Shown here piece after piece: positions 2,556-51,513 of a DNA stretch of 64,000 bases (position 1 is its first letter; each line of letters starts with the position of its first letter). A model generated the notes under the pieces. It had not been told where the DNA came from. It saw only the letters and a program-made list of their open reading frames with translations, and made no database searches. Source of the stretch: an uncultured delta proteobacterium (GTDB lineage: Bacteria > Myxococcota_A > Polyangia > Fen-1088); the NCBI GenBank assembly GCA_963737265.1, contig CAVTRY010000016.1, positions 224,001 through 288,000 of the forward strand, given 5' to 3'. A program made the position numbers and the translations under genes.

Positions 2556-3251
2556 TCAATCCTTCTGCCGATCCATGATGACGAGTTTTTGCCAGATTTT
2601 GCCGATGAGACCTGCTGTGAGATCTTCAAGGTCATCAACGGCGTCGAGAATGACGGGGTCGGCAAGCCCTTCGGCGTACAGCGCCGCTACCTTGCCAACC
2701 AGAGCCAACAGCTCGCAGGAATAGTCGAGGTAGCGCCGAAGCTCGACCTCGCCGAGAGTCCGTTTCGGCGACGAGGCGGTCGGGGGCGCCCCCACCAGGA
2801 TAGCCTTGGGATCCTTGGTGAGCTGATGCATGTCAACGATATGGGCGACGGTTCTCAACTTGTGAACCATCCGAAGCGTGCGGGTACGCTTCAAGCGATC
2901 CTCGATCTTAAAAAGGAAAAAGATGCCGGTGCCGAGAAAAAACAGGGTACCCAAGGTCGCCTCGCTTGCCTGGATCAGCTCCGCGAGGGCCGTGACCTGA
3001 AAGTTTACGTGCAGGTGGCGCACGGCAATGGCAAGCACGGACAAACCGGCAAGGAGGAGGAGTGAGACGCCGACTCGCAGGGGGATGTTTGGGCGTCGCA
3101 GTCGGTCGACCTCGGTGATGGAGTCGCGGGTGATCTCGGCGAGTCGGGCCGCCAGTTTGCTGAGACTCGCGTCGGGAAAGCGCTCGCGGATGCGCTGTCC
3201 GAGGCGCTCTGTCGTTCTCAGGATCTCGCCTGCGTCCAGTCGTTCGTACAT
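2556..3251 (-). CDS. Hypothetical membrane protein (2 TM)
   Basis: 231-aa ORF with two hydrophobic segments and plausible composition; function unknown. Confidence 0.65.
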   Translation of the reverse strand: MYERLDAGEILRTTERLGQRIRERFPDASLSKLAARLAEITRDSITEVDRLRRPNIPLRVGVSLLLLAGLSVLAIAVRHLHVNFQVTALAELIQASEATLGTLFFLGTGIFFLFKIEDRLKRTRTLRMVHKLRTVAHIVDMHQLTKDPKAILVGAPPTASSPKRTLGEVELRRYLDYSCELLALVGKVAALYAEGLADPVILDAVDDLEDLTAGLIGKIWQKLVIMDRQKD

Positions 3252-3331
3252 GGTGTTACGCAGGAAGCTAGGCCCAAGTCAGGCTGGTCAAGCTGCCGCC
3301 CCCTCTATATTCCCGCGAGATTCCCACCCAC

Positions 3332-3919
3332 TCAGGCTGGACCGGGCTTCACGTCGCCCACGGCACCGAAGAAAACGCGCGCACCTTGCAAACGCCCCTC
3401 CTCGGCCGCGCACTTGCTGCGCACGGATTCGAGGTCGCGCTTTAGCGTTTCCACGGCCGAGCGCTGCTCGTCGATCTGGCGCTGCAGATTGCTCATGGCA
3501 GCCTGGCGCTCGCTGGACGCCTTTTCGACGTCGGCGCGCTTGGCGTCGGCCACGGCACGCACCACGACGATCTTGCGGGCAGCGTCCCGCAGCACGTCGG
3601 TGGGCGCCTTGCCGATAGCGCCGAGAAAGGCCTTGGCCGCGGCCAGCTTCGAGGCTTGCGGCAAGCTCTCGTCGAGTCCGTGCAAAAAGCGTTCGAGCGC
3701 CTCGACTTCGTCGGTGTTGGGAATGCCCGCTTGATCGTAAAGGGCCTGGAAATCGAGTTCGCCCTGCGCCACTACCTGGGCGGGCCCGGCAAAGCTCGTC
3801 GCATCCGCGCCAGGGTCCTCGGGAACCTGGCATTTTTCGAGTTCGGCCATGGCCGCGCTCGTGGCCTCCTGGCCGGTGTCGGTTTCAACGAAGAGGGATT
3901 TGAGTTTGTTCCATGCCAT
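3332..3919 (-). CDS. Hypothetical coiled-coil protein divergent from pspA
   Basis: 195 aa; amphipathic N-terminus ([10 protein letters not shown]) and heptad-rich C-terminal half; TATAAT upstream. Confidence 0.7.
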
Positions 3920-3994
3920 GGGAGCCTCGCCTGCGCGGCGGATTATAGGTTAGACTCATCCTTTGACCCAGCCCGAGTGAACAAGGAGCGAGAT

Positions 3995-4705
3995 ATGTCC
4001 GAAGGCGGTGGATTCTTCAAGCGACTTTCGAACCTGCTGAGCGGCTTCATGAGCCTGTGGATCTCCGACGTGGAGAAGGAGCATCCGGAGATCGCCTACG
4101 AAAACGCCATCAACGCCATGGTGGAGAAATACGCCAGGCTCAAGCGCGCCACCGCCGCCATCATCCGCCGCCGCGACGAAGTCAACGAGCGCTACACGAA
4201 CCAGGCCAAAGAGCTGGCCGAGGTCACGTCGGATCTGGACGTCGCGGTGCAAACCGCCAAGGACGATCTCGCCCTCATTCTCATCCAGAAAAAGAACCAG
4301 CTGGAAAAGGAAGTCGCCGATCTCAAGACCGACCTCGAAACCGCCGGCACGGACGCAGGCAGCGCCAAGGCTTCGCTGTTGCAGGTACAGGCCGAGATTA
4401 AGAAGTTGCAGGCCGAGAAGGACAACATGCTGGCTAAGATGGAAAGCGCCAAGGCGCGCATCCGCATTCAGGAACAGCTGGACGGCCTGAGCGTGGATGC
4501 CGAGGTCAAGGCCCTCGAAAACGTGCGCGGCCACATCAAGAACACCATCGCCGAGGCCAACCTCGGCAAGGAGCTGTCCGAGTCGACGCTCGATCAGAAG
4601 CTCAAGGCCCTGCGCGCCCAGACCGGCGACGTGACCGCGCGCAGCCAGCTTGACGAGATGAAAGCCAAGATGGCGGCGAAAAAAGCCGCGGTCAAGACTC
4701 TTTGA
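3995..4705 (+). CDS. pspA: PspA/IM30 (ESCRT-III superfamily) protein
   Basis: AAGGAG RBS before ATG 3995; amphipathic N-terminal helix [15 protein letters not shown] motif, long coiled coil, about 236 aa. Confidence 0.85.
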
Positions 4706-4743: not shown

Positions 4744-6579
4744 ATGCACCCAGCTTGGGCCGAAGAACTTCGACAACGTTACCGGCGCGGCGAGGCCAGC
4801 CAGTTCATCCTGCACGGCAATGTCTTCGATGTCGTTGCCTGGGACGGCAAGCTCATTCCGCTCGGCACCTATCTGGCCGAGAACCTGCTCGGCGAAACCA
4901 AGGACATCGTGGCGGTCTTCAATCTCGCCAGCGGCGGCACCTTGGTTCGCCGCAAGGCCGACCTGGGCGGATTCGAGGATCTGGTGGTGCAGCGCCAGCC
5001 GAGCAAGTTTCTGCCCGCCATGGAGCGCATCCTCAAGACGCGCACCAAGGTCGCCTTGGTGGTCGAGTACGCCGAGACGCTGGCCCCGGCCGCCGACGCC
5101 GCCATGATGAGCGAGGAAGATCGCACCGCGGTCGTGACCCTGCACCGCTGGTCGCTTTCGCCCGAGATCGCCGACTCGGACAACGTGGTGTTGCTGCTGG
5201 CGGAAAACCTGTCCGAGCTTCATCCCAAGCTGGTGTCCAATCCACGCATCGCCACCGTGCGCATCCCCATGCCCGACGAGGCCACCCGCCGCACCGTCGT
5301 GGATCTAGTCATGCCGGGCGCCGACGCCGCGTATGCCGCACGACTGGCCAACGTCACCGCGGGACTGCGCGCGGTGCAGATCCAGACCATCTTGCAACCC
5401 CCGCCAGCGGGCGCCGAGGACGGCGAAGAAGATCGCTTCAAGTTCATCCACGGCCTGCTGGGAGCCACGGACGCCGCCGTGCCCAGGGCGCGCAAGCTGG
5501 CCGCCATCACCAAGGGCATGGGCCGCGACGAGATCCGCGTGGTGGTGGCGCCCGACGCCGCCCAGGGAACGCCCGACGACGTCGCCAAGCGCGAACGCGA
5601 CGAAATCGACAGAATCATCACCCGGCGCAAACGCGAGATCATCGAGCGCGAATGCTACGGACTTATCGAATTCGTCGAATCGAGCCACGACTTTCGCGTG
5701 GTGGGCGGTATCGAGGGCGTGAAAACCGAGCTCGTGCGCATCGCCAAGGCCATTCGCGAAGGCCACACCGAGCGCGTGCCCATGGGCATTTTGTTCACCG
5801 GCCCCATGGGCGCGGGCAAGACCTTCGTGGCCGAGGCCTTCGCCAAGGAATCCGGGCTGACCACCATCAAGCTCAAGAGCTTCAGGTCGAAATGGGTCGG
5901 CGCCACCGAGGCGAATCTCGAACGCATCTTGCAAGTGATCCAGGCCATCGGCCAGGTGGTAGTCATCATCGACGAAGGCGACCGCTCGTTCGGCAACCAG
6001 AGCGACGGCGAGGGCGATGGTGGAACCTCGTCTCGGGTCATCGCGCGCCTCAAGGAGTTCATGTCGGACACCAGCAACCGTGGCCGCATCCTCTTCATCT
6101 TGATGACTAACCGGCCCGACAAGCTAGACGTGGACATCAAACGCGCCGGCCGCCTCGACCGCAAGGTGCCGCTGCTGTACGCCCAGACCGCCGAGGAAGT
6201 CGAAGCCGTGCTGCTGGCCCAGGTCCGCAAGCACAAGCTGACCTGGGATGTGACCTTTCCCGCGGATCGTATCGAGATTTCGCAACCCATGCTTGGACTT
6301 TCCAACGCCGACTTCGAGGCCATCACGCTGCTGGCCGCGGAATACGCCGCTGGACCCGAGATGGATCTCGTCGTCCGCATCGGCAAAGTCCACATGGTGC
6401 AAGCCATGGCGGACTACCTGCCCTCGCGCGACGGCAAGATGCTCGAATACATGGAGCTCTTGGCCGTGTTCGAGGCGTCCAATCGCCAGATGCTTCCCAA
6501 GAAATACCAAAACATGACTGCCCAGGAATTGCAGGCGCGCCTTGATGTCTTGCGCCTGGAATGCGGACAGCGGCGATGA
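4744..6579 (+). CDS. AAA+ ATPase (classical clade) with a degenerate N-terminal AAA-like domain
   Basis: Walker A GPMGAGKT, pore loop SKWVG, Walker B IIDEGD, second region of homology TNRPDKLD...RAGRLD. Confidence 0.9.
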
Positions 6580-7272: not shown

Positions 7273-9054
7273 GGGTGGGTTGCACGGGTCCGGGTTTCAT
7301 GACTGGGCGGCCTGGGCTTGGGTGTGAGGCCAGAGGGCGAGCCAGGCCCCCGGGTTGTAGAAGGCAACCCTGAGCGCGACCATGGCTTCAAGGCCGACCT
7401 CGCTCCAGAGCATGCCGCCTTGCTTGCAGCGCCGGCCGACGAGGCGCTTGTTGGTGCTTTCGATGGCGGCACTGGCCAGCGGATAGCCGGCAGCGTGGTA
7501 TGCGGGGTAGTCCATCATGTGCTTGTGGCGGCTCAGGTAGCCGGTCAAGTCGTCGAGGGCTTTGACCGCTTGGCTGCCGGTGGAGCGCTGCCGCTCTTGG
7601 GCGAGGCCCGAGAGCACCTGGTCGACCTTGCCGTCCATGATGGCCTCGGTACGTGGCAAGACCCAAGATGGCACTGCTTTCTTGTCCGGCACGACCTTGT
7701 GACCTGCCTCCCAGACATGCTGCTTGGCGTGCTGGCAGTCGAGGATGCCAAGCAACGGCTGGTCGCAGAAGATCTCGTCGCTGTGCTCGATGAAGTAAGC
7801 GCCACCGTCGGAGACACGGACTACCTTCTGGCGAGACAGCACGCCCTGGGTCGTGGCGGCGGCGTGCAGCTTGTGCCAAAAGCCGTCTCGGTCGTTGAGT
7901 GTTGCGACGTAGCGCCGGTCCAGCAAGACGCCTCGGCCGGGGCTCTCCTCGCAGGCGTGTTCCCCGAGGTAGGTCAGTCCCATGCACACCTCGCGGCCGG
8001 CGACCCGTGGTGAGCGCCCGGTGGGCCCCATGGGCGAGCCAGCGACCTCGGACAGGGTACTCGGCGCCTGATGGCGAAGGGCACGTTCGCCGGTCTCGCT
8101 GACCGCTGCCGACTGTGTGGCGTTCGGGACCGCAGACGGCGCCTTCGCCTCGTCGGTCGCTTTGCGCCGTGGCTCTTGTCCTGGTTTCCAGGTCAGGACG
8201 TGAACACCGTCAACCTCAATCACGCCGAAGCCCTCTGTACGCTTGGGCGCACACAGGTCACCGCGAGCCTGGGCGTGCACCTGTTGGTCGTACTTGCTCC
8301 AATGGGCTTCGGCATCGGCCTGGGCGGCCTGGGCGGCACGCGTTCCATCTTCGGTCACCCATCGCTTGGCGGTGCTCCCGTCGGGAGCCACGGCCCACAG
8401 GTAACGGAGTTCCTCGACGGCCTCGTCGAAGCTGCCCATCCGGCAGGCCAGCCTTTCGGTCGCCTCGCGCACATCGTCGGCGTATTCGCCCGCAGGAAGG
8501 CCCCAAGCCTCGTCAAAGGCAAACCAGCTGCGGCCGCAAACACACTCGTTGCGTCGACGATCGGCTTCCACCCGACCGAATCTCGCCACGAACGTCGTTC
8601 TCTCAAATCCTCTGGATTTGGCTTGCTTTCCACAGGTGCAGACTTGTCCAGGTCCATGAGCCCGCGCGGCCTGCTGGATGACCAGTTCCATGGCTCTTCG
8701 GCCCACAGTCGACAACGTCGTCGCCAGCGCAGCCCCCAGCGTCGCCACGGACATGCCATCGCCGCGCAGCGCTTGTTGTTCGAGCTCGTTCAATTTCTGG
8801 ACGAGCGGTTCCAGAGCCTGCAAAGTCAATCCTGCGACATTGGGTCGTCTCATGGCGGTGCCTCCTTCTTGGATAGCTGAAGGCATCGCCATGAATCTCC
8901 TTCCTACGCAAATTCCTTCCATTTTGGGAACCACGCCAGGGCCCGTTTTCCGAGCGCGCCACCCACCAACTCGCCCTCGAATCAACGTCCCGTAGCGCGC
9001 TCGGAAAACGGGCCCTTCAGCCGCCACCAGAACCCGGGCCCGTGCAACCCACCC
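7273..9054 (-). mobile_element. Insertion sequence, ISKra4/ISLre2-like (Mutator-type DDE)
   Basis: 24-bp terminal IRs GGGTGGGTTGCACGGGYCCGGGTT (23/24 match); 9-bp target duplication AGCTCCGAC at 7264-7272 and 9055-9063. Confidence 0.9.
7297..8853 (-). CDS. Transposase (ISKra4/ISLre2-like)
   Basis: CxC..CxC zinc-binding region, EVDG, SDGG, LDCQHAKQH, GYPLASAAIES.NK..RRCK..G..W; AAGGAGG RBS. Confidence 0.85.
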   Translation of the reverse strand: MRRPNVAGLTLQALEPLVQKLNELEQQALRGDGMSVATLGAALATTLSTVGRRAMELVIQQAARAHGPGQVCTCGKQAKSRGFERTTFVARFGRVEADRRRNECVCGRSWFAFDEAWGLPAGEYADDVREATERLACRMGSFDEAVEELRYLWAVAPDGSTAKRWVTEDGTRAAQAAQADAEAHWSKYDQQVHAQARGDLCAPKRTEGFGVIEVDGVHVLTWKPGQEPRRKATDEAKAPSAVPNATQSAAVSETGERALRHQAPSTLSEVAGSPMGPTGRSPRVAGREVCMGLTYLGEHACEESPGRGVLLDRRYVATLNDRDGFWHKLHAAATTQGVLSRQKVVRVSDGGAYFIEHSDEIFCDQPLLGILDCQHAKQHVWEAGHKVVPDKKAVPSWVLPRTEAIMDGKVDQVLSGLAQERQRSTGSQAVKALDDLTGYLSRHKHMMDYPAYHAAGYPLASAAIESTNKRLVGRRCKQGGMLWSEVGLEAMVALRVAFYNPGAWLALWPHTQAQAAQS

Positions 9055-40991: not shown

Positions 40992-41956
40992 TGTCCGCGA
41001 CTGTCGTTTTTCTCGAAACCTCTTCCACCAACCTGCGTTCGGCGTCGCTGCCCGCGCTGACCGCGGCGCGCGCCCTGGCCAAGCACCACGGCGGCCCAGT
41101 CGTCGGTGTCGTCATCGGCGCTGGCGTCGGCGCCGCGGCTGTCGACGCCGCCCGCTACGTCGACAAGGTGCTGTGCTTCGACAACCCGGCGCTGGCCGCC
41201 GCCCTGGCCGAAACCTGGGCGCCCCTGCTCGCGGGCGCGGTCAAGGGCTCCGGTGCCACCGCGCTCGTCGCCTCGGCGACCTCCACCGGCAAGGACATTC
41301 TGCCCCGCGCCGCCGCCCTACTTGGCGCAGGCATGGCAAGCGACGTGGTGGCGGTACTCGGCGCCAAGTCGTTCCGCCGGCCGACCTATGCCGGCAACGC
41401 GCAGACCGAGGTCGAAGTCACGACGGCCACGGTGGTCTGCACCGCACGCCAGACCGAATTCGCTCCCGCGGCGCCTGCCGCCAGCCCCGGCACGGTCGAA
41501 AGCAAAGATCCCGGCGCCATCGACGCCCTAGGTTCCGAATTCGTGGCCCTGCACGCCACCACCAGCGCACGCCCGGATCTCGCCGAGGCCAAGGTGGTCG
41601 TGTCCGGCGGTCGCGGCATGAAAGAGGCGGCGAACTTCAAGGTGCTGGAAGAGCTGACCGATGCTCTCGGTGGTGCGCTCGGCGCCAGCCGTGCCGCCTG
41701 TGACGCCGGCATGGTGCCCAACGACCTGCAAGTCGGACAGACCGGCAAGGTGGTAGCGCCCGAGCTCTACTTCGCCGTCGCCCTTTCCGGCGCCATCCAG
41801 CACTTGGCCGGCATGAAAAGCTCCAAGGTCATCGTGGCCATCAACAAGGATCCCGAAGCGCCCATCTTCCAGGTCGCCGACTACGGCCTGGTTGCCACCT
41901 GGGAATCGACGCTGCCCCAGCTCATCGCCGAGATCAAGAAGGTGAAGGCGGCGTAA
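40991..41956 (+). CDS. etfA: Electron transfer flavoprotein alpha subunit
   Basis: [35 protein letters not shown]. Confidence 0.95.
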
Positions 41957-41963
41957 CAACGGC

Positions 41964-42070
41964 GGACGACACATTCATGGAAGCGGGACGGACAGCTGCT
42001 TCATCCAGGCGAGGTTCGGGCACGCGAGCCTGGGGACGACGAGCATCTACACTTTTGTGTCGATCAAGAG
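41964..42070 (+). pseudogene. Tyrosine recombinase C-terminal (box II) remnant
   Basis: Frameshifted MEAG/TD.CFIQARFGHASLGTTSIYTFVS resembles L.EAGTD...IQ..LGH.S..TT.IYTHVS. Confidence 0.55.
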
Positions 42071-42132
42071 CGGGTTGGATGCGGGGAGGTGCAGGAGGTA
42101 TATTGGACAGCGGAATCATTCGAGGGATCGTC

Positions 42133-42342
42133 ATGGCCGAACCAGCCCATCAGCGTCAGCAGCTCTTCGAGAAGATTGCTCGCCTATCTCCTGACCGTGT
42201 GGCGGAGGTCGAGGACTTTGTGGATTTCCTCGCCCCGCGGACTACCGATCGCGAGCTCGCCCATGCATCCGTGGCGGCTTCCGTGCCGGCCTTTGCGAAA
42301 GTCTGGGACAATCCCGAGGATGACGTCTACGACCAGCCGTAG
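42133..42342 (+). CDS. Probable antitoxin (DUF2281-like)
   Basis: KIARLSPDRVAEVEDFVDFL...AFAKVWDNPEDDVYD; directly upstream of a PemK/MazF gene. Confidence 0.75.
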   Translation: MAEPAHQRQQLFEKIARLSPDRVAEVEDFVDFLAPRTTDRELAHASVAASVPAFAKVWDNPEDDVYDQP

Positions 42343-42351
42343 CGGTCCAGC

Positions 42352-42557
42352 ATGCCCTACCACTTCGGCGACGTCATCTTTGTCCCGTTTCCATTCACCG
42401 ACCAATCGACTACGAAAAGGCGTCCGGCGGTTGTCGTCAGCTCGGATGCCTATCACCGCGACCGGCCGGACATCATCCTGATGGCCGTCACCAGTCAAAT
42501 GCGCCCCGCGCCCACGCCGGCTTGCTCAAGCCTTCGGTCATCAAGCCCTTACTCACA
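42352..42557 (+). pseudogene. PemK/MazF toxin, internally deleted and truncated by the repeat array
   Basis: GDVIFVPFPFTD...KRRPAVVVS; resumes as AGLLKPSVIKPLLT in another frame and is then cut by the array. Confidence 0.8.
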
Positions 42558-43329
42558 CAGATCCCTGACCGACCACAGATCCCTGACCCACAGATCCCTG
42601 ACCGACGGTAGTTGAAACCATCGCAGATCCCCGCGACCGACGGTAGTTGCCAGATCCCTGACCGACGGTAGTTGATCCTCAGATCCCTGACCGACGGTCA
42701 CGCAGATCCCCCCCCAGATCCCCCCAGATCCCCAGATCCCCGACCGACGGTAGTTGCGGCGGATCCCTGCCCCCAGATCCCCCAGATCCCCGACCGACGG
42801 TAGTTGCGGCGGATCCCTGCCCCCAGATCCCCGACCGACGGTAGTTGCACAGATCCCCGACCGACGGTTGTCCAGATCCCCGACCGACGGCAGATCCCCG
42901 ACCGACGGTCAGATCCCCGACCGACGGTATCGCAGATCCCCGACCGACGGTAGTTGCGGCAGATCCCCAGATCCCCGACCGACGGTAGTTGCGGCAGATC
43001 CCCAGATCCCCGACCGACGGTAGTTCCCACAGATCCCCGACCGACGGTCAGATCCCACAGATCCCCGACCGACGGTCAGATCCCACAGATCCCCGACCGA
43101 CGGTCAGATCCCCGACCGACGGTAGTTGCCCAGATCCCCGACCGATGGTGCAGAGACCCCCGACCGACGGTCCAGAGACCCCCGACCGACGGTAGTTCAG
43201 ATCCCCGACCGGGGAGATCCCGGGGAGATCCCCGACCGACGGTAGTTGCCCAGATCCCCGACCGACGGTAGTTGCCCAGATCCCCAGATCCCCGACCGAC
43301 GGTCCCAGATCCCCGACCGACGGTAGTTG
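42558..43329 (+). repeat. Polarised array of about 40 variably 3'-truncated units of CAGATCCCCGACCGACGGTAGTTG
   Basis: Units counted by eye; shared start AGATCCC; core palindrome ACCG-A-CGGT. Confidence 0.95.
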
Positions 43330-44525
43330 AAGATGGACGTGCTGCAATTCCAGAGCTCCAGTTTGAAGTCGACCCAATAGGTCCTATGGCAGGTGCACTG
43401 GACACTCCAGCAGGCCGCGGATTGGCCATTCCGGTGTGGGAACGAAGGTGCGCAACGGCGGCGAACGCCTGGCGAGATGCCTTCGAGACAGAAAGCTGCC
43501 TTTATGAGGCAGAAGTGCCTTTCTCATCGAGGCTCGGTGGCCCTGCCTCACGGCGACGCTGGGGCTCCGCCGGGCGAAGCATGGGCATCCTGCACGCCAT
43601 CCGTTCCCTCGCTCAGCACGCGTGCGAACCTGCGCATCCAGTAGGTCCCGAACGGGAACACGACATCGGCGACGCCAGCGGTCCATGCCCTGATGGCCAA
43701 GCGGTACCGCTCGAGAAACGCCTTGCTGCGGCCGATCGCCTCGATCCTTGGCCACTTGCTTCTGGCGGCGACGCGCGGGCTGATAGCGAAGTGCGGCTCG
43801 GCGCTTTTCGGGCAGTCAAAAGGGTTTTGGGCGAGAATGGCCTCGCGACCGAGGACAGTCTTGCCAGTCGCGCGGCGGCGTTCGCGGTGTTCGGTTTCGG
43901 CGGTGCGGACGCGGTCGGCCACGAGAGCGTTCCATTCGTCCTGAGTCTGACAGCAGAAGCCGCTGGGCCTGCGTAGAGGCAGAATGGCGACCGCGGGCTA
44001 CTGTCCTTCGGAGCGAAAGAAATACTTCGGTCTGGTGGCGATGAGTCGTTGTGTGGTCAGCGCGGCCTGGAAGCTACTGACGCCGGGCCATTCCTCGATG
44101 GTGTCAACCAAGTCGGCGGCGGACGGGTTGGCGTAGGCGTAGACCATCTTGTCGAGAACGTCGTTGGGTTCGACGAGGCGGACGACGGAGGTTGGGTCGG
44201 ACGACCAGAAGGCCTCGAAGCGACCGAGATGGGTGTTCTGGCAGCGGGCAAGGAGGGCGTGAAAGTGTTCGGCAAAGATGGGGAAGTTGCCCTCGGCGTC
44301 GTGCAGCCCAGCGTGGTAGTGGTTGGACATGGCCACAACGAAGAAGATTTCGACCTTGGCTCTCTGCGCGGCGAGGGCGAGGCAATAGACAAAGGCGTTG
44401 TTGGTGTCCTCGTTGCTGAGCGACAATTACATCTCCCCAAAGACGACAGCTACGTCGCCCCGCTTTGAGGCGCGACGGTGACCGTGAGGTAGACCTCCAA
44501 GCCCGCAAGCGGGCAGGAGGCACCT

Positions 44526-46024
44526 TTGAAGCCGGTCACCGACGCCCAAGTGAGGCGTTTGATGGAAGAGATGAGCAAGATTGGAAAAGTAGGCCAGGCC
44601 GCCATGAAGGCGGGCATGGACCGGAAGACAGGGCGGCGATACATCGCCGCGGGCAAGCTACCGTCGGAGCTACGGCAGCCGCGGTGGTGGCGGACGCGCC
44701 CTGACGCGTTCGCCGAGGACTGGCCAGCCGTGGCCAAGTTGCTGGAGGAAACGCCTGGGCTGGAGGCTCAGACGGTGCTGGAGCTGCTGGAGGCGAAGCA
44801 GCCAGGGCGGTACAACGAGAGCCATCTTCGGACAATGCAGCGGCGAATCCGTCGCTGGCGGGCCGAGCATGGTCCTGCGCGTGAGATTTGGTTCACGCAG
44901 GCGCATCGGCCCGGTGAAGCCGCGCAAACCGACTTCACGTCGACGGCGGAGCTTGGTGTGACGATCGTGGGCCAGCTATTCGTGCACCTTTTGTGCGTGA
45001 CGGTGCTGCCGTACTCGAACTGGCAATGGGCGACCGCGTGTCTGTCGGAGTCTCTGGCAGCGCTTCGGCGAGGGATCCAGTCGGCGCTGTTCCAGCTTGG
45101 GCGGGTGCCGCGATACCACCAAACCGACCACTCGACGGCGGCGACACATCAGATCGCTCGCGATGCGGAAGATCGCACTTTCAACGATGAATACAAGGCG
45201 GTCATGCGGCACCTCGGAATGGAGCCACGAACTACAGCCGTCGGGGCCAAGGAACAAAACGGCGATGTGGAGGCCAGCAACGGCGCGCTCAAGCGTCGGC
45301 TTGAACAAGCGTTGCTGGTGCGTGGCAGCCGCGACTTCGCGGACCAAGACGACTACGAACGCTTCGTAGCCAAGGTGGTCCGCAAAGCCAACGCTTCGCG
45401 AGGCCCGCGCGTCGCCGAGGAGATCGAAGCCATGCGGCCGCTGGTGGTGGAGCGTTTGCCGGAGTACGCAGAAATGACGGCACCTGTGGCGTCGACGAGC
45501 ACCATCCGGGTCAAGTCGTGCGCCTACTCGGTGCCGTCGAGGCTGATCGGCGCACGGGTGAGAGTCCGCGTGTTCGAGCACCGAATCGAGGTGTACTACG
45601 CCGACAACTTGGAATTGGCCTGCGACAGGCTGCGAGGCAAGACCGCGCGCATCGACTACCGGCACGTCATCTGGTCTTTGGTGCGCAAGCCGGCGCGTTT
45701 TCTCGCTACGTCTACCGAGAAGAGCTGTTTCCAAGCGTGACTTTCAGGCGGGCATACGACGCGATCCAGGCGACCAAGCCTGGAATCAAAGGCGACGTTG
45801 AATACCTGCGCATTCTTCACCTGGCCGCCAGCACGATGGAAGCCGATGTCGAGCAAGCGCTCACGACTCTGCTTGCCGATGGGACCATCTTGACGGCGGA
45901 TGCAACCAAGAAGAGATGCACACAGGCGACGGACAGTACCTATCCACCGAGCGTCCCCGCGCTCGAAGCACCGCTGGTCGATCTCGCGTCCTACGACCTG
46001 CTCCTCGAACAGGTGGCATCATGA
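44526..46024 (+). CDS. istA: IS21 transposase (frameshift near 45692)
   Basis: QTDFT, TDH, NGDVE DDE motifs; YSVPSRLIG; KP(G)AFSRYVYREELFP continues in another frame. Confidence 0.85.
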
Positions 46025-46869
46025 CCAACGTCTCCGTAGACACGGTCAAGCCGAGCGCGCTCGACGCTCTGCTGGTGCTTCTGCGCGCGCTCAAGCTGCC
46101 TGCCTTCACCCGGCACGCCGAGGAGATCGCGATCAAGGCCAGCCGCGAGGGGTGGACCTTCAGCCAATACCTCCAGCACCTGGCCGAACTGGAAATCGAA
46201 GAGCGCCGAACCCGTCGCATCGATCGCGCGCTTCGCGATTCGGACCTTCCCACGGAGAAAACCCTGGCCACCCTGGAACGTGGTCGGCTGTCACCCAAGG
46301 TGATGAAGCAGATGGCGAGCCTGTGTGAGGGTGGCTTTGTCGAACGTGGGGAGAACCTGCTCGTCTTCGGACTGCCCGGCCGAGGCAAAAGTCACGTTGT
46401 GGCTGCCATCGGCCACGAACTCATCCGGCGCGGCTACCGGGTCCTCTTCACGCCGACCTTCGCGCTTGTCCAGAGGCTGCTGGCCGCCAAGCGCGACCTT
46501 CGCCTGGAACGAGAACTGGCCGCGCTCGACATCTATCACGCCGTGATCCTCGACGACATCGGCTACGTCCAGCAGAGCCGCGATGAAATGGAGGTCCTTT
46601 TCACCTTCCTGGCCGAGCGGTACGAACGCAAGAGCGTCCTCATCACCAGCAACCTGGTCTTCAGCGATTGGATCCGCATTTTCAAGGATCCCATGACCAC
46701 CGCCGCCGCCATCGACCGACTGGTCCACCACGCGGTCATCCTTGAGATGACCGGCCCCAGCTACCGCAGCGAAGAAGCACGAAAGAGAGGCGTCACCACC
46801 CCAGCGACAACTACGACAACTACCGATCAACCAACGACAACTACCCCCGACAACAATGGGGCGATGTAA
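46021..46869 (+). CDS. istB: IS21 helper ATPase
   Basis: GLPGRGKSH, ILDDIGY, LITSN, AAIDRLVHH. Confidence 0.95.
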   Translation: MTNVSVDTVKPSALDALLVLLRALKLPAFTRHAEEIAIKASREGWTFSQYLQHLAELEIEERRTRRIDRALRDSDLPTEKTLATLERGRLSPKVMKQMASLCEGGFVERGENLLVFGLPGRGKSHVVAAIGHELIRRGYRVLFTPTFALVQRLLAAKRDLRLERELAALDIYHAVILDDIGYVQQSRDEMEVLFTFLAERYERKSVLITSNLVFSDWIRIFKDPMTTAAAIDRLVHHAVILEMTGPSYRSEEARKRGVTTPATTTTTTDQPTTTTPDNNGAM

Positions 46870-47019
46870 TTGACGTCACCGGGTGAATGTAGTTGACGTC
46901 CAGCACCTCGTCGGGACGCAGGAAGAAGCGCCGCTCGGAACAACGGCGCGTAATCATGTAGTCGGCACCCGGAAGCACCTGGCGTGGAAGGCTCATGCCG
47001 GGGTATCGGTCAGGGTGCC

Positions 47020-47258
47020 AGAGAAGTTGCTTCGAGAACTACCCTCGGTTCGGATCACCGATCACCCGCGGGCTTCGAGAATTACCCTCGGTTCGGATCA
47101 CCCGGAGAAGTTGCTTCGAGAATTACCCTCGGTTCGGATCACCAGCGGAATTACCCTCGGTTCGCACCCGAGAAGTTGCTTCGAGAATTACCCTCGGTTC
47201 GGATCACCAGACGAGACGGTTCGGATCACCAGAATTGTTCGGATCACCAGAATTACCC
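47020..47258 (-). repeat. Polarised array of GGTGATCCGAACCGAGGGTAATTCTCGAAGCAACTTCTC units (minus strand), variably truncated
   Basis: Related to, and inverted relative to, the left array (GATCC..ACCGA.GGTA.TT). Confidence 0.9.
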
Positions 47259-47274
47259 GAAACCATCGATCAGG

Positions 47275-47415
47275 AACCGCCCGCAGTGAGCGTCCCGAGG
47301 CGCGCAGGAGACTTGACATGTCGTAGCTGTCGATGGCGTCGTAGGTGCCGATCATCAAGAGCACGATGTGGGGCGTGTACTCCGGCACGACGCTGCCTGT
47401 GGACGATAATGGCGG
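47275..47415 (-). pseudogene. SGNH/GDSL hydrolase internal fragment
   Basis: PHIVLLMIGT(Y)D....YDMS..(frameshift)PARLGTL resembles the block III GTND region. Confidence 0.55.
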
Positions 47416-47448
47416 CCAAGCACCAGGTCGGCGCGGGCCTTGTCAATG

Positions 47449-47931
47449 TCACTTTGGCGAGCGGCTGCCCGAGGTCGAGATGCGCTCGAGGCTCTTGAGG
47501 TCGGCGAGATCCTGGTCTCGGCCGGATGCACGTTTGTTCTTAAGCAATGCCAACCGACCGATGATGGGAATGGTGCGACCGTCGATCTCGATGCTGGCAC
47601 CATCCGCCATCGCCTCGTCGAAGGTGATGCCGTCGACGCGGTTGATGATGTCGATGCGCAGCGGTGGAACCCCGATCTGCAGCACGCCGTCGTAGCTGGC
47701 GAAGTCGCCTTCGCTTACTTCGAAAGCGGACAGCGACGCGCCGAAGGCCCCCAAAGCACGATAGACCAGCGCCGCATTGCCGCTGGTCGCCCGTACCAAG
47801 ACATCCAGATCCTTCGTGGCCCTGGGATGTCCGTGGAAAGCGACGGCGTGCCCGCCGACCACCACGAACTCGGCGCCTGCGTCGCAGAGGGCGAGCAGGA
47901 GATCGCGAAAGTCGTCGGGAAGGTCGATCAT
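47449..47931 (-). CDS. Nucleotidyltransferase-fold protein
   Basis: VVVGGHAVAFHGHPRATKDLD, RIDII, KNKRASGRDQDLADL. Confidence 0.8.
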   Translation of the reverse strand: MIDLPDDFRDLLLALCDAGAEFVVVGGHAVAFHGHPRATKDLDVLVRATSGNAALVYRALGAFGASLSAFEVSEGDFASYDGVLQIGVPPLRIDIINRVDGITFDEAMADGASIEIDGRTIPIIGRLALLKNKRASGRDQDLADLKSLERISTSGSRSPK

Positions 47932-48152
47932 GTCGCTCGCCTGCGGACGAACCTGCAAGGGATCTGCGCGCGTGCGTAGACGGGCAGCGCATGCCCCGCA
48001 AGGCTGTAGCTTATCCGCGTGAGCCGGTGGACCAATGAAACAGCCTCTGCGCCGAACACCGGGGTGAAGTCAACCTCAGGGTCGCCGAGGTGAGCCTTGC
48101 GCAGGGTCATTCGCGCCCGTCTCGCTTGCGACCGTCTTTCGGCGTCCGTCAT
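47928..48152 (-). CDS. Small partner protein of the nucleotidyltransferase
   Basis: ATGA overlap with the nucleotidyltransferase gene; 74 aa. Confidence 0.6.
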   Translation of the reverse strand: MTDAERRSQARRARMTLRKAHLGDPEVDFTPVFGAEAVSLVHRLTRISYSLAGHALPVYARAQIPCRFVRRRAT

Positions 48153-48339
48153 GTGCCAATCCCCACGCCGCCAGAATAGCGTCTTTGCGAGCGGACGCCA
48201 AACATCCGCAGCCGGCCACCCGTAGCCGGCGGCACCGTTTCCACCGAGGTCAGCGTGGGCGAGCGAGGGAGCGGCTGCGCGCCGGTCGCCTTGACGCCGG
48301 CCACGCCTTTGTCTTGGGCGCGGCCCGTAGCGCTCGCCG

Positions 48340-48427
48340 CTAGCTGGCCAGCTTCGCGATCAAGTCGCCGACCTCGCGCGTGCCCGTACCCATCTTGCCG
48401 GCGGAGAGACTCTTGATCTTGATGCCC
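48340..48427 (-). pseudogene. 3' fragment of an isopropylmalate/isocitrate dehydrogenase family gene
   Basis: IKIKSLSAGKMGTGTREVGDLIAKLAS* resembles the LeuB-family C-terminus; begins exactly at the repeat. Confidence 0.6.
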
Positions 48428-48574
48428 GTTCCTATCCCCCGTTCCTATCCGAGGGTACTTTTGAGGACGGATGAGATCCCTCAAATAGCAGGAACCATGT
48501 CCGGCTTCCGGGCGCGAGGGCTGGCGCTCAACTACCCTCGGTGAGGAATCGGAGATACCCTCGGTTCGGATCAC
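48428..48574. repeat. REPIN-like unit, copy 1
   Basis: Inverted ends TCCTATCCGAGGGTA...TACCCTCGGTGAGGA around a conserved ~75-bp spacer; repeated at 49857 and 50167. Confidence 0.85.
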
Positions 48575-49850
48575 CTACGAAGTGGTCGAGAAGGTGGCCC
48601 GCCGATGTGGCTTTCTCAAGCGTCGCCGCGATGTCGCGCCCGCGGCGCTTCTGGTAGCGTGCATTTCGGCCCTGGGCGCGGGCGCCGCCATGTGGCTTGC
48701 CGATATCCTGCGCGCGTTCAACGCCTTTACCGGGAAAGCCGTTCGCTACAAGCCGTTCCACAACCAGATCAGCAAGCCGAAGTTTCCCGACTTCGTACGC
48801 GCGATTCTGGAGGAGTTGCTGGCAAAGCTCACCGCGCCCGTGCTCGAGGGGTTACCGAAGAGCAAGCTGGCCCAGTTCGAGGAAATTGTGGCCCACGACG
48901 GAACCTCGTTTGCCCTCAAGAACACCCTCGCGAAGAAGTGGCCGGGGCGCTTCAAGAAGCTGACACCGGCTGCAGTAGAACTCCACGTCACGATGAGTGT
49001 CCTCAGCGACAACCCGGTCGCGATTACCTTGGCTCCGGACAGGGAGGCTGAGCGCCCGTTCCCTCCCAAGGCGGCTTCCCTCAAGAACCGCCTGCTGCTT
49101 GAGGACCGTGGATACCAGGAGCGAGAGTTCTTCGTCGCCGTACAAGACGCCGACGGTTCCTTCATAGTCCGTGGCACAAAGTGCATCCGGCCGACAATCC
49201 GGACCGCTCGCGATAGCCAGGGCTGTCGTCTCCGTCACCTTGAAGGAAGACGCCTCTCGTGGTCCCTGCTCCCCCGTCATGACGTCGACCTCGAAATCGA
49301 TTGGAAGCGCGACTCGGGCAGGACCTACAGCGGTCGTCTTGTCGTCATCTATGCCGAAGGAAAGCGGAACCAGGCGTCCTTCGTCTACCTGCACACGAAC
49401 TTGCCCCGTGAGACTTTCTCCGCGCACGACGTGGGGCAGATCTACAGGCTAAGGTTCTACAGGCTAAGGGGCAAGTCGAGCTGCTGTTCAAAGAATGGAA
49501 ATCCCGCTCAAACCTCCACAAATTCGACACCGGCAAGGCCCCCATCGCCGAGGGCTTGATCTGGGCCAGCCTCCTCGCAGCTACGCTCAGGCGCTGCATC
49601 ACCCACGCGGCCGAGCGTGCGTGCGGCATCCCGCTGTCCACACAGCGCGCAGCCCGTTTCGCCAAGCACTTCCTCGACGCAATCCTGGCTGCCGTCCTTG
49701 AATGCAGCACGAGCCTCTTCGACGACATACGCGCCGCCTTCGCTTTCCTCGTTGGCAACGCGCTTCGGGCACATCCGAAGCGCGACCGAAAAACCGGACG
49801 CCTCGCCGCGGGACTTCGCCATGTGGCCGTCGCCTAAGTACCTACGTATG
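48575..49850 (+). pseudogene. IS4 family transposase, 5'-truncated and frameshifted, with its right end
   Basis: HDGT, EDRGY, YRLR(W)QVELLFKEWKS broken by a tandem TCTACAGGCTAAGG duplication; end CCTAAGTACCTACGTATG. Confidence 0.8.
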
Positions 49851-49856
49851 AAGACA

Positions 49857-50341
49857 TCCTATCCCCCGTTCCTATCCGAGGGTACTTTTGAGGACGGATG
49901 AGATCCCTCAAATAGCAGGAACCATGTCCGACTTCCGGGCGCGAGGGCTGGCGCTCAACTACCCTCGGTGAGGAATCGAGGAATCGGAGAATTACCCTCG
50001 GTTCGGATCACTCCGACCTCAGGGAATTACCCTCGGTTAGGCTTTCACCGGTTAGGTTAGGCTTTCACCGGTTAGACTTTCACCTCCGCGGTTAGGCTTT
50101 CACCTCCGGTTAGGTTTTCCACCGTACACAGGGAATTACCCTCGGTTAGGCTTTCAAGGCTTTCAAGGGTACTTTTGATGACGGATGAGATCCCTCAAAT
50201 AGCAGGAACCATGTCCGACTTCCGGGCGCGAGGGCTGGCGCTCAACTACCCTCGGTGAGGAATCGAGGAATCGGAGAATTACCCTCGGTTCGGATCACTC
50301 GGAGCGGATCACTCGGAGAATTACCCTCGGTTCGGATCACT
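49857..50341. repeat. REPIN-like copies 2 and 3 plus truncated arrays (AATTACCCTCGGTTCGGATCAC and AATTACCCTCGGTTAGGCTTTCACC)
   Basis: Directly visible repeats that share the TACCCTCGGT core. Confidence 0.9.
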
Positions 50342-50547
50342 CCCCGAAGGGGGCAGCGCGGCCGTTGACCTCCGTTCCCGGAAGATTCGTTCCGGCGCAA
50401 ACCCGCTGAGGCCGAGCGAAGCAAGCGATGGGCAGGGTGGGAGGCGGGGCCGAAGCCGGGCGTCCACTCTCCCGAATGCCCGCACGGCATCAACCTTTCC
50501 GTCACAACGGCGATTGTCGTTGTATGATTGTGCCAATGAGCCGGCTT

Positions 50548-51513
50548 ATGGCGGCCGAACAAGTCAAGAGCGTGGCCGAAACCATAGACCGGCTGGAGCG
50601 CAACGTTGCGCGCGTTATCCGGGGCAAGCCGGAGGCGATCCGCAACTGCGTGCTGGCACTGCTGGCGCGCGGGCACCTGCTGGTCGAGGATGTCCCCGGC
50701 GTTGGCAAGACCACGCTGGCGCGCGCCCTGGCCGCATCCATCGGCGGCACCTTTCACCGCATCCAATTCACCAGCGACCTTTTGCCGTCGGACATCATCG
50801 GCGTGTCCGTCCTGGTCAACGGCACCGGAAGCTTTGACTTCAAGCCCGGGCCGCTGTTCGCCAACGTCGTGCTCGCCGACGAAATCAACCGCACCACGCC
50901 GCGCACGCAAAGCGCGTTGCTGGAGGCGATGAACGACAACCAGATCACCGTCGACGGCACGAGCTACCCGCTCGAACAGCCCTTCTTGGTCGTCGCCACG
51001 CAAAACCCCGAGGAACACTACGGCACCTATCCCCTGCCCGAGTCGCAGATGGATCGCTTCGCCCTGCGCATCCGGCTCGACTATCCCTCGGCCGCGGATG
51101 AAAAGGCGCTCCTCCTCGAAGCGCCGGTTCTCGCCGAGGAAGCGCTGGCGAAAGTGCAAGCCGCGTTGTCGCTGGGCGAAATCGTGGCCCTGCAAGAGGC
51201 CGCCGCGCGCGTACACCTGTCGCCCGAGCTGGCTGGCTACATCGTCGACGTGGCGCACGAAACCAGGCGTTCGCCCTTTCTGTCGCTCGGCATCTCGCCG
51301 CGCGGGGAGCTCGCCTGGCGCAATCTCGCGCGCGCTGCCGCGCTGGCCGCGGGTCGCGAATTCGTGCTGCCCGACGACCTCAAAAACCTGGCGCTGCCGG
51401 CCCTCGCCCATCGCCTGGTCCTCGTCACCCAACTCGATTCCACCGGGCGCGCACGCGAGGAGGCCGAGCGAATCGTCACCGACATTCTCAGCCGCGTGCC
51501 GGTGCCGGGCTAG
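50548..51513 (+). CDS. MoxR family AAA+ ATPase
   Basis: HLLVEDVPGVGKT, RIQFTSDLLPSDI, LADEINR, ATQNP. Confidence 0.95.
   Translation: MAAEQVKSVAETIDRLERNVARVIRGKPEAIRNCVLALLARGHLLVEDVPGVGKTTLARALAASIGGTFHRIQFTSDLLPSDIIGVSVLVNGTGSFDFKPGPLFANVVLADEINRTTPRTQSALLEAMNDNQITVDGTSYPLEQPFLVVATQNPEEHYGTYPLPESQMDRFALRIRLDYPSAADEKALLLEAPVLAEEALAKVQAALSLGEIVALQEAAARVHLSPELAGYIVDVAHETRRSPFLSLGISPRGELAWRNLARAAALAAGREFVLPDDLKNLALPALAHRLVLVTQLDSTGRAREEAERIVTDILSRVPVPG

Follow-up and report, generated by a model that had tools for sequence, protein, structure and literature searches.

Organisation of the locus

The window analysed here is a stretch of 64,000 nucleotides from an uncultured member of the Polyangia (assembly GCA_963737265.1, contig CAVTRY010000016.1, positions 224,001 to 288,000 of the forward strand). 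It contains a gene whose predicted product resembles the tyrosine transposases of the HUH class that are associated with repetitive extragenic palindromic (REP) sequences, the RAYTs, and this gene is flanked on both sides by arrays of short, truncated copies of the element's own end sequences. These arrays are real, they are found throughout the transposase family and they are tied to the enzyme. The order on the plus strand, from left to right, is a mazF/PemK pseudogene, the left array, a unique spacer, the HUH gene on the minus strand and the right array:

42352..42557, plus strand: mazF/PemK toxin pseudogene, the insertion site (Pfam PemK_toxin, E 1.3e-8)
42558..43329, plus strand: left array, on the downstream side of the gene, with some 40 copies of the unit CAGATCCCCGACCGACGGTAGTTG that are truncated on the 3' side and point to the gene
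42614..42623, plus strand: 10-mer GAAACCATCG within the left array; the same 10-mer adjoins the right array on its outer side
43330..43547: unique spacer, which separates the stop codon of the HUH gene from the innermost left unit
43548..44413, minus strand: distal part of the predicted HUH Y1 transposase gene, approximately residues 31-316, with the HUH motif SNHYH and the catalytic-tyrosine helix YAYANP
44414..46905, plus strand: IS21-family insertion (IstA and IstB recognised by both Pfam and NCBIfam), which interrupts the HUH gene between its codons 30 and 31
46906..46996, minus strand: first 30 or so codons of the HUH gene (MSLPRQVLPGADYMITRRCSERRFFLRPDE)
46997..47058, minus strand: innermost full unit of the right end, with a leader that is conserved in homologues (AAGCAAC...GACCGATA...ATG)
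47059..47258, minus strand: right array, on the upstream side of the gene, with copies of GTGATCCGAACCGAGGGTAATTCTCGAAGCAACTTCTC that are truncated
47259..47268, plus strand: right flank, second copy of GAAACCATCG

The transposase gene of the window is dead. Its reading frame runs on the minus strand from 46996 to 46906 and continues from 44413 to 43548; it is split by the IS21 element, whose 6-bp target duplication CCTCGT is found at 44408-44413 and 46906-46911, and it carries an in-frame TAG at 43998-44000, where the relatives have a glutamine. The inverted ends of the IS21 element begin with TGCTG. Its istA gene is present as two overlapping open reading frames (44526-45740 and 45518-46024) and is followed by istB (46021-46869); the insertion may itself be frameshifted in istA.

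Structure of the arrays

The units of the left array begin with (C)CAGATCC and stop at varied points. The sequence AGATCCCNGACC occurs 25 times, every time on the plus strand and within the left array; the expectation from shuffled sequences is 0.02, and none of 100 shuffles reached 25. Units were delimited by a jump-alignment, that is, a dynamic programme in which each array is aligned with its innermost copy and jumps between any two positions of this reference are allowed at a fixed cost. For the left array, this gave 39 segments that begin at the first base of CAGATCC. The run was repeated with the reference lengthened by 8 bases on its 5' side, so that earlier starts were possible, and segments of at least 7 nt were retained. 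In this run, 33 of the 36 segments start within -2 to +2 of the same base, and the ends spread over positions 6 to 26, with modes at 8 (5/36), 19 (7/36) and 24 (9/36). The ends are ragged but not uniform, and the wobble of the start consists of zero to two extra C. The fixed start and the ragged stops of about 40 left units, which the first-pass annotation had described, are both confirmed by these figures.

The right array, together with its innermost unit (approximately 47021-47258), contains seven minus-strand segments of at least 7 nt. As had been noted earlier, they begin with GTGATCC and have variable lengths: five of the seven start at one and the same base of (G)GTGATCC, and the ends lie at 11, 13, 19, 24, 30, 38 and 38. 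Allowing at most one mismatch, GTGATCCGAAC is found 10 times in the window, always on the minus strand, with six copies in the right array and four further right at 48564-50340.

Both arrays point inward and have one core in common. The core ACCGANGGTANTT (at most one mismatch) is present 30 times in the window, where 0.39 occurrences are expected; all 30 lie in 42601-50331 and none was found in the remaining 56 kb or so. An end of the element comprises 22-25 nt, that is, a locus-specific tip of 10-13 nt followed by a core of 12-13 nt that is conserved in the family, and the two ends are inverted relative to each other. A tetranucleotide GTAG, GTAA or GTAC sits within the conserved core, and no hairpin follows it within the unit; single units fold no better than shuffled sequences (z -0.73 and +0.64).

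The variants of the left array are sorted by position, in agreement with the first description: CCCTGACC is found in the five outermost matches, CCCCGACC in 20 inner matches, and two adjoining units at 43151-43197 carry CAGAGACCCC. In addition, the left array shows duplication of a higher order; its periods are 50, 35 and 28 nt, and the match is 94-98%. Since whole blocks have been duplicated, the number of independent events must be smaller than the number of units.

One alternative arrangement could be rejected from the window itself. If units had arisen by nested insertion, with each unit split by the next one, tails with a variable start and a fixed end should be seen; these are nearly absent, and 3 of the 36 segments start off the tip.

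Between the innermost right unit and the start codon there is a conserved leader (AAGCAAC(T)T ... GACCGATA ... ATG), which occupies 46997-47030 in the window and is also seen just upstream of position 5001 in the homologous loci L013, L014, L019 and L002. Possible roles for this leader are those of a promoter, an operator or a binding site.

The transposase and its relatives

No Pfam family, including Y1_Tnp (PF01797), matches the transposase of the window at E <= 0.01, and among 24 relatives Y1_Tnp matches a single one (E 0.0038). The NCBIfam family REP_Tyr_transpos matches all 24 relatives, with a best E of 1.1e-14; two members stay under its curated cut-off of 80 bits, namely the protein of the window with 23 bits and an intact relative, P0003, with 33.6 bits. 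Of 6686 candidates in a protein search, 592 are relatives at E <= 0.001. Among the matches listed (120 of 592), most have 303-316 amino acids and are 60-93% identical, and some were named RayT or putative transposase by one source. Many of these listed matches come from contigs of only 1-3 kb, and short-read assemblies thus seem to break at the arrays beside the gene; the transposase family may for this reason be under-represented in binned genomes.

In an alignment of the 24 relatives, which extends down to 32% identity, R17, R18, S58-N59-H60-x-H62, D67, Y120 and N124-P125 are invariant. The HUH motif SNH(Y/H)H and the helix Y120-x3-N124-P125 are present in 24/24, and the same helix can be aligned to the sequence of 4er8. 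We compared an AlphaFold (AF2) model of P0003, with a mean predicted local distance difference test (pLDDT) score of 85, to the PDB using Foldseek. The best match is 4er8_A, the E. coli TnpA-REP in complex with its REP hairpin (E 2.5e-7, TM 0.74 on the target), and the next matches are the TnpA proteins of IS608, ISDra2 and IS200 (E 1e-4 to 1e-3). The match to the PDB is limited to the N-terminal 170 residues or so. For residues 170-300, approximately, no structural match was found in the PDB, and the best score of the C-terminal half in the ESM Atlas, 0.86, is below the meaningful level. With about 316 amino acids, the protein of the window has an extra C-terminal half of about 150 residues. 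A sequence search of the PDB with the family profile found 4er8 alone (E 0.27).

The active site of 4er8 consists of H59, H61, Y115 and N119 (PMC3479197), and the spacing of H60, H62, Y120 and N124 in the present family is the same. Taken together, the invariant motif residues, the fold match and the matches to REP_Tyr_transpos support the earlier assignment, so that the protein is predicted from sequence and model to be a RAYT-like HUH Y1 tyrosine transposase.

Arrays at homologous loci

Homologous arrays were studied in 70 loci from one scan of GTDB species genomes; the window's own locus lies outside this set. The best blastn match of the window among them is L024, with 84% identity over 425 nt. 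Wherever a lineage is named it is a myxobacterial one (Myxococcales, Polyangia, Polyangiaceae, Kofleriaceae, Nannocystaceae or Enhygromyxa). The matched gene stretch is free of stop codons in 61 of the 70 loci and contains one in 9. In many loci, Tandem Repeats Finder reports arrays that directly adjoin the gene. By eye, these arrays are of the kind found in the window: they consist of a locus-specific tip and a conserved core, with truncated copies stacked outward, and they point inward on both sides.

To quantify the polarity, we counted matches to the core using the regular expression CCGA-N-G-[GT]-T-[AGT]-N-T, which variant cores escape. Within 1.5 kb upstream of the gene, 103 matches point inward (gene strand) and 5 lie on the other strand; within 1.8 kb downstream, 122 point inward (opposite strand) and 10 lie on the other strand. 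Of the remaining matches in the 70 loci, one is inside a gene and 77 are farther away; those far matches that were inspected form four extra clusters, in L004, L015, L018 and L019. For the loci L001-L051 we also counted the cores in each flank of at least 400 nt. There is at least one core in 31, at least two in 25 and at least three in 16 of 47 upstream flanks, and the respective numbers for 46 downstream flanks are 26, 22 and 14; since the expression misses variant cores, all these figures are lower bounds.

Next, we asked whether starts are more uniform than ends in these loci too. Within an array, the agreement between units reaches 10-13 nt to the 5' side of the core and then collapses, which means that the units start at a roughly constant distance from the core, despite tips that differ between the loci. 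A CC at positions -6/-5 is common to almost all arrays. In an automated jump-parse of the 30 arrays with at least four segments, the entropy of the starts was lower than that of the ends in 25 arrays and higher in 2, and the two were equal in 3. The 179 units with the modal start have lengths of 7-49 nt and a median of 16. In a run with a shorter reference, starts fell within 1 nt of the mode in 205 of 408 segments, compared to 121 of 408 for the ends. The inward-pointing, fixed-start arrays that the first-pass annotation expected in homologues are therefore present, and their starts are less variable than their ends.

Some copies do not stop within the end sequence. In L019, one unit continues through the conserved leader and the start ATGAGC before it jumps back to a tip; in L029, the leader and about 110 nt of coding sequence are repeated; in L062 and L063, an outer copy enters the gene at its 3' end and continues there for more than 200 nt. 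Since such copies enter unique interior DNA, processive copying fits them better than cleavage at a second site, and the lengths of the runs, from 7 to more than 200 nt, are more in keeping with the run length of a polymerase than with a second specific cut. We also consider it unlikely that the ragged ends stem from site-specific cleavage at a second position: by eye, no common motif precedes the three favoured ends of the left array, and some copies reach tens to hundreds of nucleotides into unique DNA.

The architecture is not bound to one end sequence. Distant clades with 32-43% identity lack the core of the Polyangia and show the same architecture; L052 (Kofleriaceae) and L065 (Enhygromyxa salina) are examples with 35-42% identity. 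The end sequence of L052 is TACCAGGTTG; the Enhygromyxa ends, by eye, have GGACTC-N-GAGTC and then a palindrome TGATC...GATCA. The upstream ends of the E. salina loci L059-L066 contain two short palindromes (GACTC-N-GAGTC and TGATC...GATCA, again by eye) and are nearer to a classical hairpin end than the units of the Polyangia. No second gene is conserved beside the arrays; the largest cluster of neighbours, kinases, is seen in 7 loci.

These observations bear on two simpler explanations. The arrays might be ordinary minisatellites, in which slippage and unequal crossing-over have acted on a pre-existing tandem repeat and the transposase was not involved. The higher-order blocks of the left array (periods of 50, 35 and 28 nt) show that block duplication does occur, and some arrays of the homologues are regular. 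Slippage, however, keeps the phase of a repeat and does not predict a sharp start combined with ragged ends; nor does it predict that copies enter unique DNA and coding sequence, that both ends have the same inward polarity in loci with unrelated units or that the arrays are strictly linked to one gene family. We therefore hold a purely minisatellite origin to be rather improbable.

Alternatively, the arrays could be artefacts of assembling a repetitive end. It is true that the exact number of units in any single assembly is uncertain, and the many short contigs among the listed homologues suggest that assemblies break at the repeats. The same architecture nevertheless recurs in many independent assemblies, that is, in contigs of 0.1-3 Mb from metagenome-assembled genomes, in short-read NODE and k141 contigs and in isolate genomes of Enhygromyxa salina, and we give an artefact practically no credence.

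Turnover of the arrays and elements without a gene

Gene copies within one genome are mostly 60-90% identical. There are also recent duplicates: L009 and L010 are 100% identical, L015 and L017 99.3%, and five copies of E. salina SWB005 97.9-99.3%. The homology between L009 and L010 (99.6%) is confined to positions 4950-6129; this segment begins about 50 nt before the start codon and extends about 180 nt beyond the stop codon. Their arrays have the same tip, in 7 and 4 copies, respectively, which are arranged differently. Among the SWB005 copies, one tip motif of L065 occurs 1-11 times upstream and a second one 0-7 times downstream; differences in the tip sequence lower these counts. Near-identical genes with different arrays show that the arrays change in place and faster than the gene.

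Gene copies can also lie close together. The locus L029 has three of them within 10.9 kb (2959-4141, 4946-6128 and 7542-8622), and L011 has a second, partial copy nearby (1166-2140). Either the elements cluster, or they insert beside one another.

This turnover has to be set against the idea that the arrays are selected platforms with several sites, for loading of the transposase, for regulation or as buffer DNA, and that truncated units are products of decay. Transposons such as Tn7 and Mu use several binding sites at their ends, and in many loci the innermost unit and the conserved leader are found 25-60 nt upstream of the start codon. A selected platform is, on the other hand, hard to reconcile with a copy number and an arrangement that vary freely between copies of 98-100% identity, with the many units that consist of a tip and lack the conserved core, and with 16 of 47 upstream flanks without a core match. 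We consider this explanation very improbable.

To the right of the right array there is 1.2 kb of unique DNA with an open reading frame for a DUF2204 nucleotidyltransferase, and then, beyond the region that had originally been noted, a second block (48436-50345) with further arrays, three near-identical mini-elements of about 140 nt that have no gene and an IS4 insertion. The DNA beyond this block contains housekeeping genes, the first one for a MoxR-type ATPase. The block is composed as follows:

48436..48575, minus strand: mini-element 1, the ends of which face inward (minus strand, GTGATCCGAACCGAGGGTA...; plus strand, CCCCCGTTCCTATCCGAGGGTAC...)
48576..49864 (approximate limits), plus strand: IS4-family insertion between mini-elements 1 and 2 (NCBIfam transpos_IS4_1, E 7e-40)
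49865..50012, minus strand: mini-element 2, near-identical to mini-element 1
50013..50164, minus strand: array that has the same core, CCGAGGGTAATTCC, and another tip, GGTGAAAGCCTAA
50165..50345, minus strand: mini-element 3, cut short on its inner side, with further units of the GTGATCC type

Each mini-element of the window folds into one long hairpin by means of its inverted cores (z -1.6 to -1.8). Similar doublets without a gene, with a spacer of about 35 nt, are found in L018. The stacking of truncated tips is seen on gene-less mini-elements as well, which implies that the enzyme acts in trans.

Outer blocks of an array often have a tip unlike that of the inner blocks on the same core, for example in the upstream arrays of L007, L009, L019 and L032 and at 50013-50164 of the window. 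This change may reflect a turnover of the tip in a master copy, or else one element has inserted beside the remains of another. Two further observations concern the neighbourhood. The open reading frame of the IS4 transposase stops at 49559, and coding-like sequence runs on. Between the right array and the mini-elements (47449-48152, minus strand), an open reading frame of 74 amino acids overlaps that of the DUF2204/AbiEii-like nucleotidyltransferase (169 amino acids), and the couple may be a toxin-antitoxin pair. A scan of 41500-51000 against Rfam found no RNA family at E <= 1.

The insertion site

Compared to its homologues of 111 amino acids, the mazF pseudogene has kept residues 1-55 and 67-81; residues 56-66 are missing, and the frame ends with ...KPLLT at the first unit of the array. 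With this internal gap, mazF has decayed or was damaged independently of the insertion of the element. A small antitoxin-like open reading frame precedes the pseudogene (window 42134-42557).

The codons that should come next in mazF according to its homologues (T-I-E/D) are those of AACCATCG, which is present at 47261-47268 and at 42616-42623, and in the left array this copy comes after the three outermost units of the CCCTGACC type. Since the expected codons are found outside the right array, the element sits inside mazF, and a flank repeat of 8-10 nt brackets most of it. Using tblastn with four homologues, we found none of the remaining C-terminus of mazF to the right of the element beyond the codons T-I-D, so that a clean split of mazF is not proven.

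The 10-mer GAAACCATCG looks either like a target duplication or like flank DNA that was captured by the array. A target duplication would be unexpected for a Y1 transposase; none was seen at the outer limits of the window's copy, and inspection of those of L002 and L007 by eye gave the same result. The flank copy could have come into the array if copying had on one occasion continued past an end into the flanking DNA.

Origin of the arrays

On balance, we lean towards the view that the window carries a dead TIRtron-like Y1 element (of the 'TIRYT' type) and that its end arrays are by-products of the enzyme's own chemistry of nicking, extension and rejoining, although this preference is a modest one. 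At the 5' edge of the tip, the enzyme would nick one of the strands, and a phosphotyrosine would hold the enzyme to that 5' end. A polymerase would then extend the freed 3'-OH over a variable distance and so recopy first the tip, then the core and then the interior, after which the enzyme-bound 5' end would be rejoined to the new 3' end. Following replication, there would be one added copy, which starts exactly at the tip and stops wherever the synthesis had ended. With repetition, copies would pile up outward from either end, on the strand proper to that end, and mirror-image arrays would result; blocks of units would be duplicated by later unequal exchange.

Y1 HUH enzymes cut single-stranded DNA, leaving a 5'-phosphotyrosine and a free 3'-OH, and the authors of the TnpA-REP structure propose that the link can be resolved by any single-stranded DNA 3'-OH (PMC3479197). 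On the strand that reads from tip to core, the junctions of the arrays join a variable 3' end to a fixed 5' end. They do so at both ends of the element and on opposite strands, as would be expected from a nick, limited extension and rejoining, and since homologues in other myxobacteria carry the same stacks, the arrays probably record the cut-and-rejoin activity of the enzyme. The first-pass annotation had already attributed the arrays to iterative nick-and-transfer or copy events at one HUH cleavage site, in preference to simple slippage. Polarity, gene linkage and sharp starts speak for this attribution; that it is the enzyme which makes the junctions is something we infer from polarity, linkage and the chemistry of HUH enzymes.

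Several observations weigh against this view. The ends of the left array cluster at three positions (8, 19 and 24) and show no smooth decay, and many of its junctions contain 1-4 filler bases (C, CC, CA, CGG or A) which would not be expected from a clean rejoining by the enzyme. The right array has four outer full units with GGTAATTC where the innermost has GGTAGTTC, so that these four are not simple copies of the present innermost unit. In its simple form, the model also leaves the 10-nt flank copy inside the left array unexplained. Among the homologues, the regular expression found no core in 16 of 47 upstream and 20 of 46 downstream flanks, and some arrays are nearly regular with both ends fixed (downstream of the gene in L023 and in L012). 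Finally, the position of the nick is deduced solely from where the units begin, and on the complementary strand the same junctions appear as a fixed 3' end joined to a ragged 5' end; polarity alone therefore does not prove a 5'-linked chemistry.

The filler bases and the preferred stop points speak for a second explanation. The enzyme might provide a nick or a roadblock and nothing else; a replication fork would break or stall there, the free end would recopy the tip inward from the sister strand, and microhomology or end-joining with fillers would close the junction. End-joining by Ku and LigD occurs in myxobacteria, and gene linkage and polarity would be the same as in the case of enzymatic rejoining. 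However, 33 of 36 starts fall in a window of 3-4 nt, which is sharper than is usual for end-joining after a break, and TnpA-REP itself performs strand transfer in vitro (PMC3479197). We rank host repair second to rejoining by the enzyme and think it unlikely.

If the nick-extend-rejoin model is right, one may go a step further and read the arrays as a roughly chronological ledger of such events, made by an undescribed clade of Y1 HUH enzymes, in which the ends grow outward in place and the outer units represent older versions of the tip. Each unit would then mark the point at which a single abortive run of copying had come to its end. We put this forward tentatively, and would give it slightly less than an even chance. 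The notion of an ordered record, which goes back to the first description, is plausible because the outer units carry older variants; the term 'telomere-like' that was used together with it is a metaphor only.

Comparison with known systems

The closest known relatives are the TIRtrons. The name TIRYT/TIRtron was given by Di Nocera et al. 2013 (PMC3733652) to RAYT-like genes flanked by inverted repeats that are not REPs. Like the family of the window, TIRtrons combine a RAYT-like HUH Y1 gene with flanking inverted repeats that are not REP hairpins. According to the same account, TIRtron repeats may form small families in dimers or clusters, and TIRYT proteins differ from RAYTs in length and in signature residues. 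Judged by the definition in this paper, rather than by its TIRYT groups, the family of the window belongs to the TIRtrons/TIRYTs. On the other hand, the GGGGWSAS motif that is reported there for TIRtrons differs from the core found here, and the account, its figures and supplement aside, names neither myxobacteria nor polarised arrays of tip-anchored, 3'-truncated copies of the ends.

For RAYTs, REPs, REPINs and bacterial interspersed mosaic elements (BIMEs) we relied on Nunvar 2010 (PMC2817692), Bertels 2017 (PMC5581495) and Messing 2012 (PMC3479197). Resemblances are the fold, which is closest to that of TnpA-REP (4er8), the matching catalytic layout and the position of the gene between inverted short repeats. 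The gene-less doublets, with their inward-facing ends and long-hairpin fold, are similar to REPINs, and the core contains a GTAG-like tetranucleotide as in REPs. However, the arrays are unlike the classical GTAG-hairpin organisation of REPs and BIMEs, as had been suggested from the start: the single units are not palindromic hairpins (z -0.73 and +0.64), GTAG, GTAA or GTAC is internal to the core, and each array has one orientation (103 vs 5 and 122 vs 10), whereas the repeats of BIMEs alternate. Within the window the core is not dispersed, with all 30 copies in 42601-50331. A family of REP repeats typically goes with one vertically inherited RAYT. RAYTs are mostly single-copy, and in two RAYT groups the flanking 16-mers are abundant genome-wide (PMC5581495); the genes studied here are present in multiple copies per genome, with pairs of 98-100% identity. 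Furthermore, the predicted protein has about 316 amino acids with the extra C-terminal half of about 150, and two members, the protein of the window and P0003, stay below the curated RAYT cut-off.

With the IS200/IS605 family (IS608, ISDra2) the element has in common the Y1 HUH fold, the absence of a visible target duplication at the outer limits of the window's copy and, presumably, a chemistry of nicking and rejoining. The ends of IS200/IS605 elements, however, are subterminal hairpins without inverted terminal repeats or arrays; tnpB is absent here, and Pfam Y1_Tnp recognises just 1 of the 24 relatives. IS91/ISCR elements, with their one-ended transposition, and the Helitrons and Helentrons are similar in that copying starts at a fixed nick and has a variable end, and in that these HUH elements are associated with tandem repeats; Helitrons and Helentrons carry tandem arrays (PMC7492417). 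In contrast to the present family, these rolling-circle elements have Y2 enzymes with helicase partners or domains, and a variable end at a distance of kilobases gives rise to new cargo rather than to stacks of 8-50-nt end fragments at both ends.

It is unsettled how RAYT-type enzymes multiply their cognate repeats, and the authors of the TnpA-REP structure could only suggest that a 3'-OH resolves the 5' intermediate. In the family described here, the products of such events seem to remain in the genome at both ends of the element, in dozens of loci and with different end sequences, which makes the proposal directly testable, for example with the intact genes of the culturable Enhygromyxa salina. 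If the proposal holds, a class of bacterial minisatellites would have an enzymatic origin, and tandem repeats would be created and turned over by a transposase. In addition, the arrays may explain why assemblies break at transposase genes, and they hint at a possible natural DNA-recording activity. In the literature, figures and supplements aside, we found no account of tip-anchored, 3'-truncated, inward-polarised arrays or of this myxobacterial family. In summary, the kind of element, a gene between inverted ends as in RAYT/REP and TIRYT/TIRtron systems, is known, whereas the architecture of its ends and the origin that this architecture implies are new.

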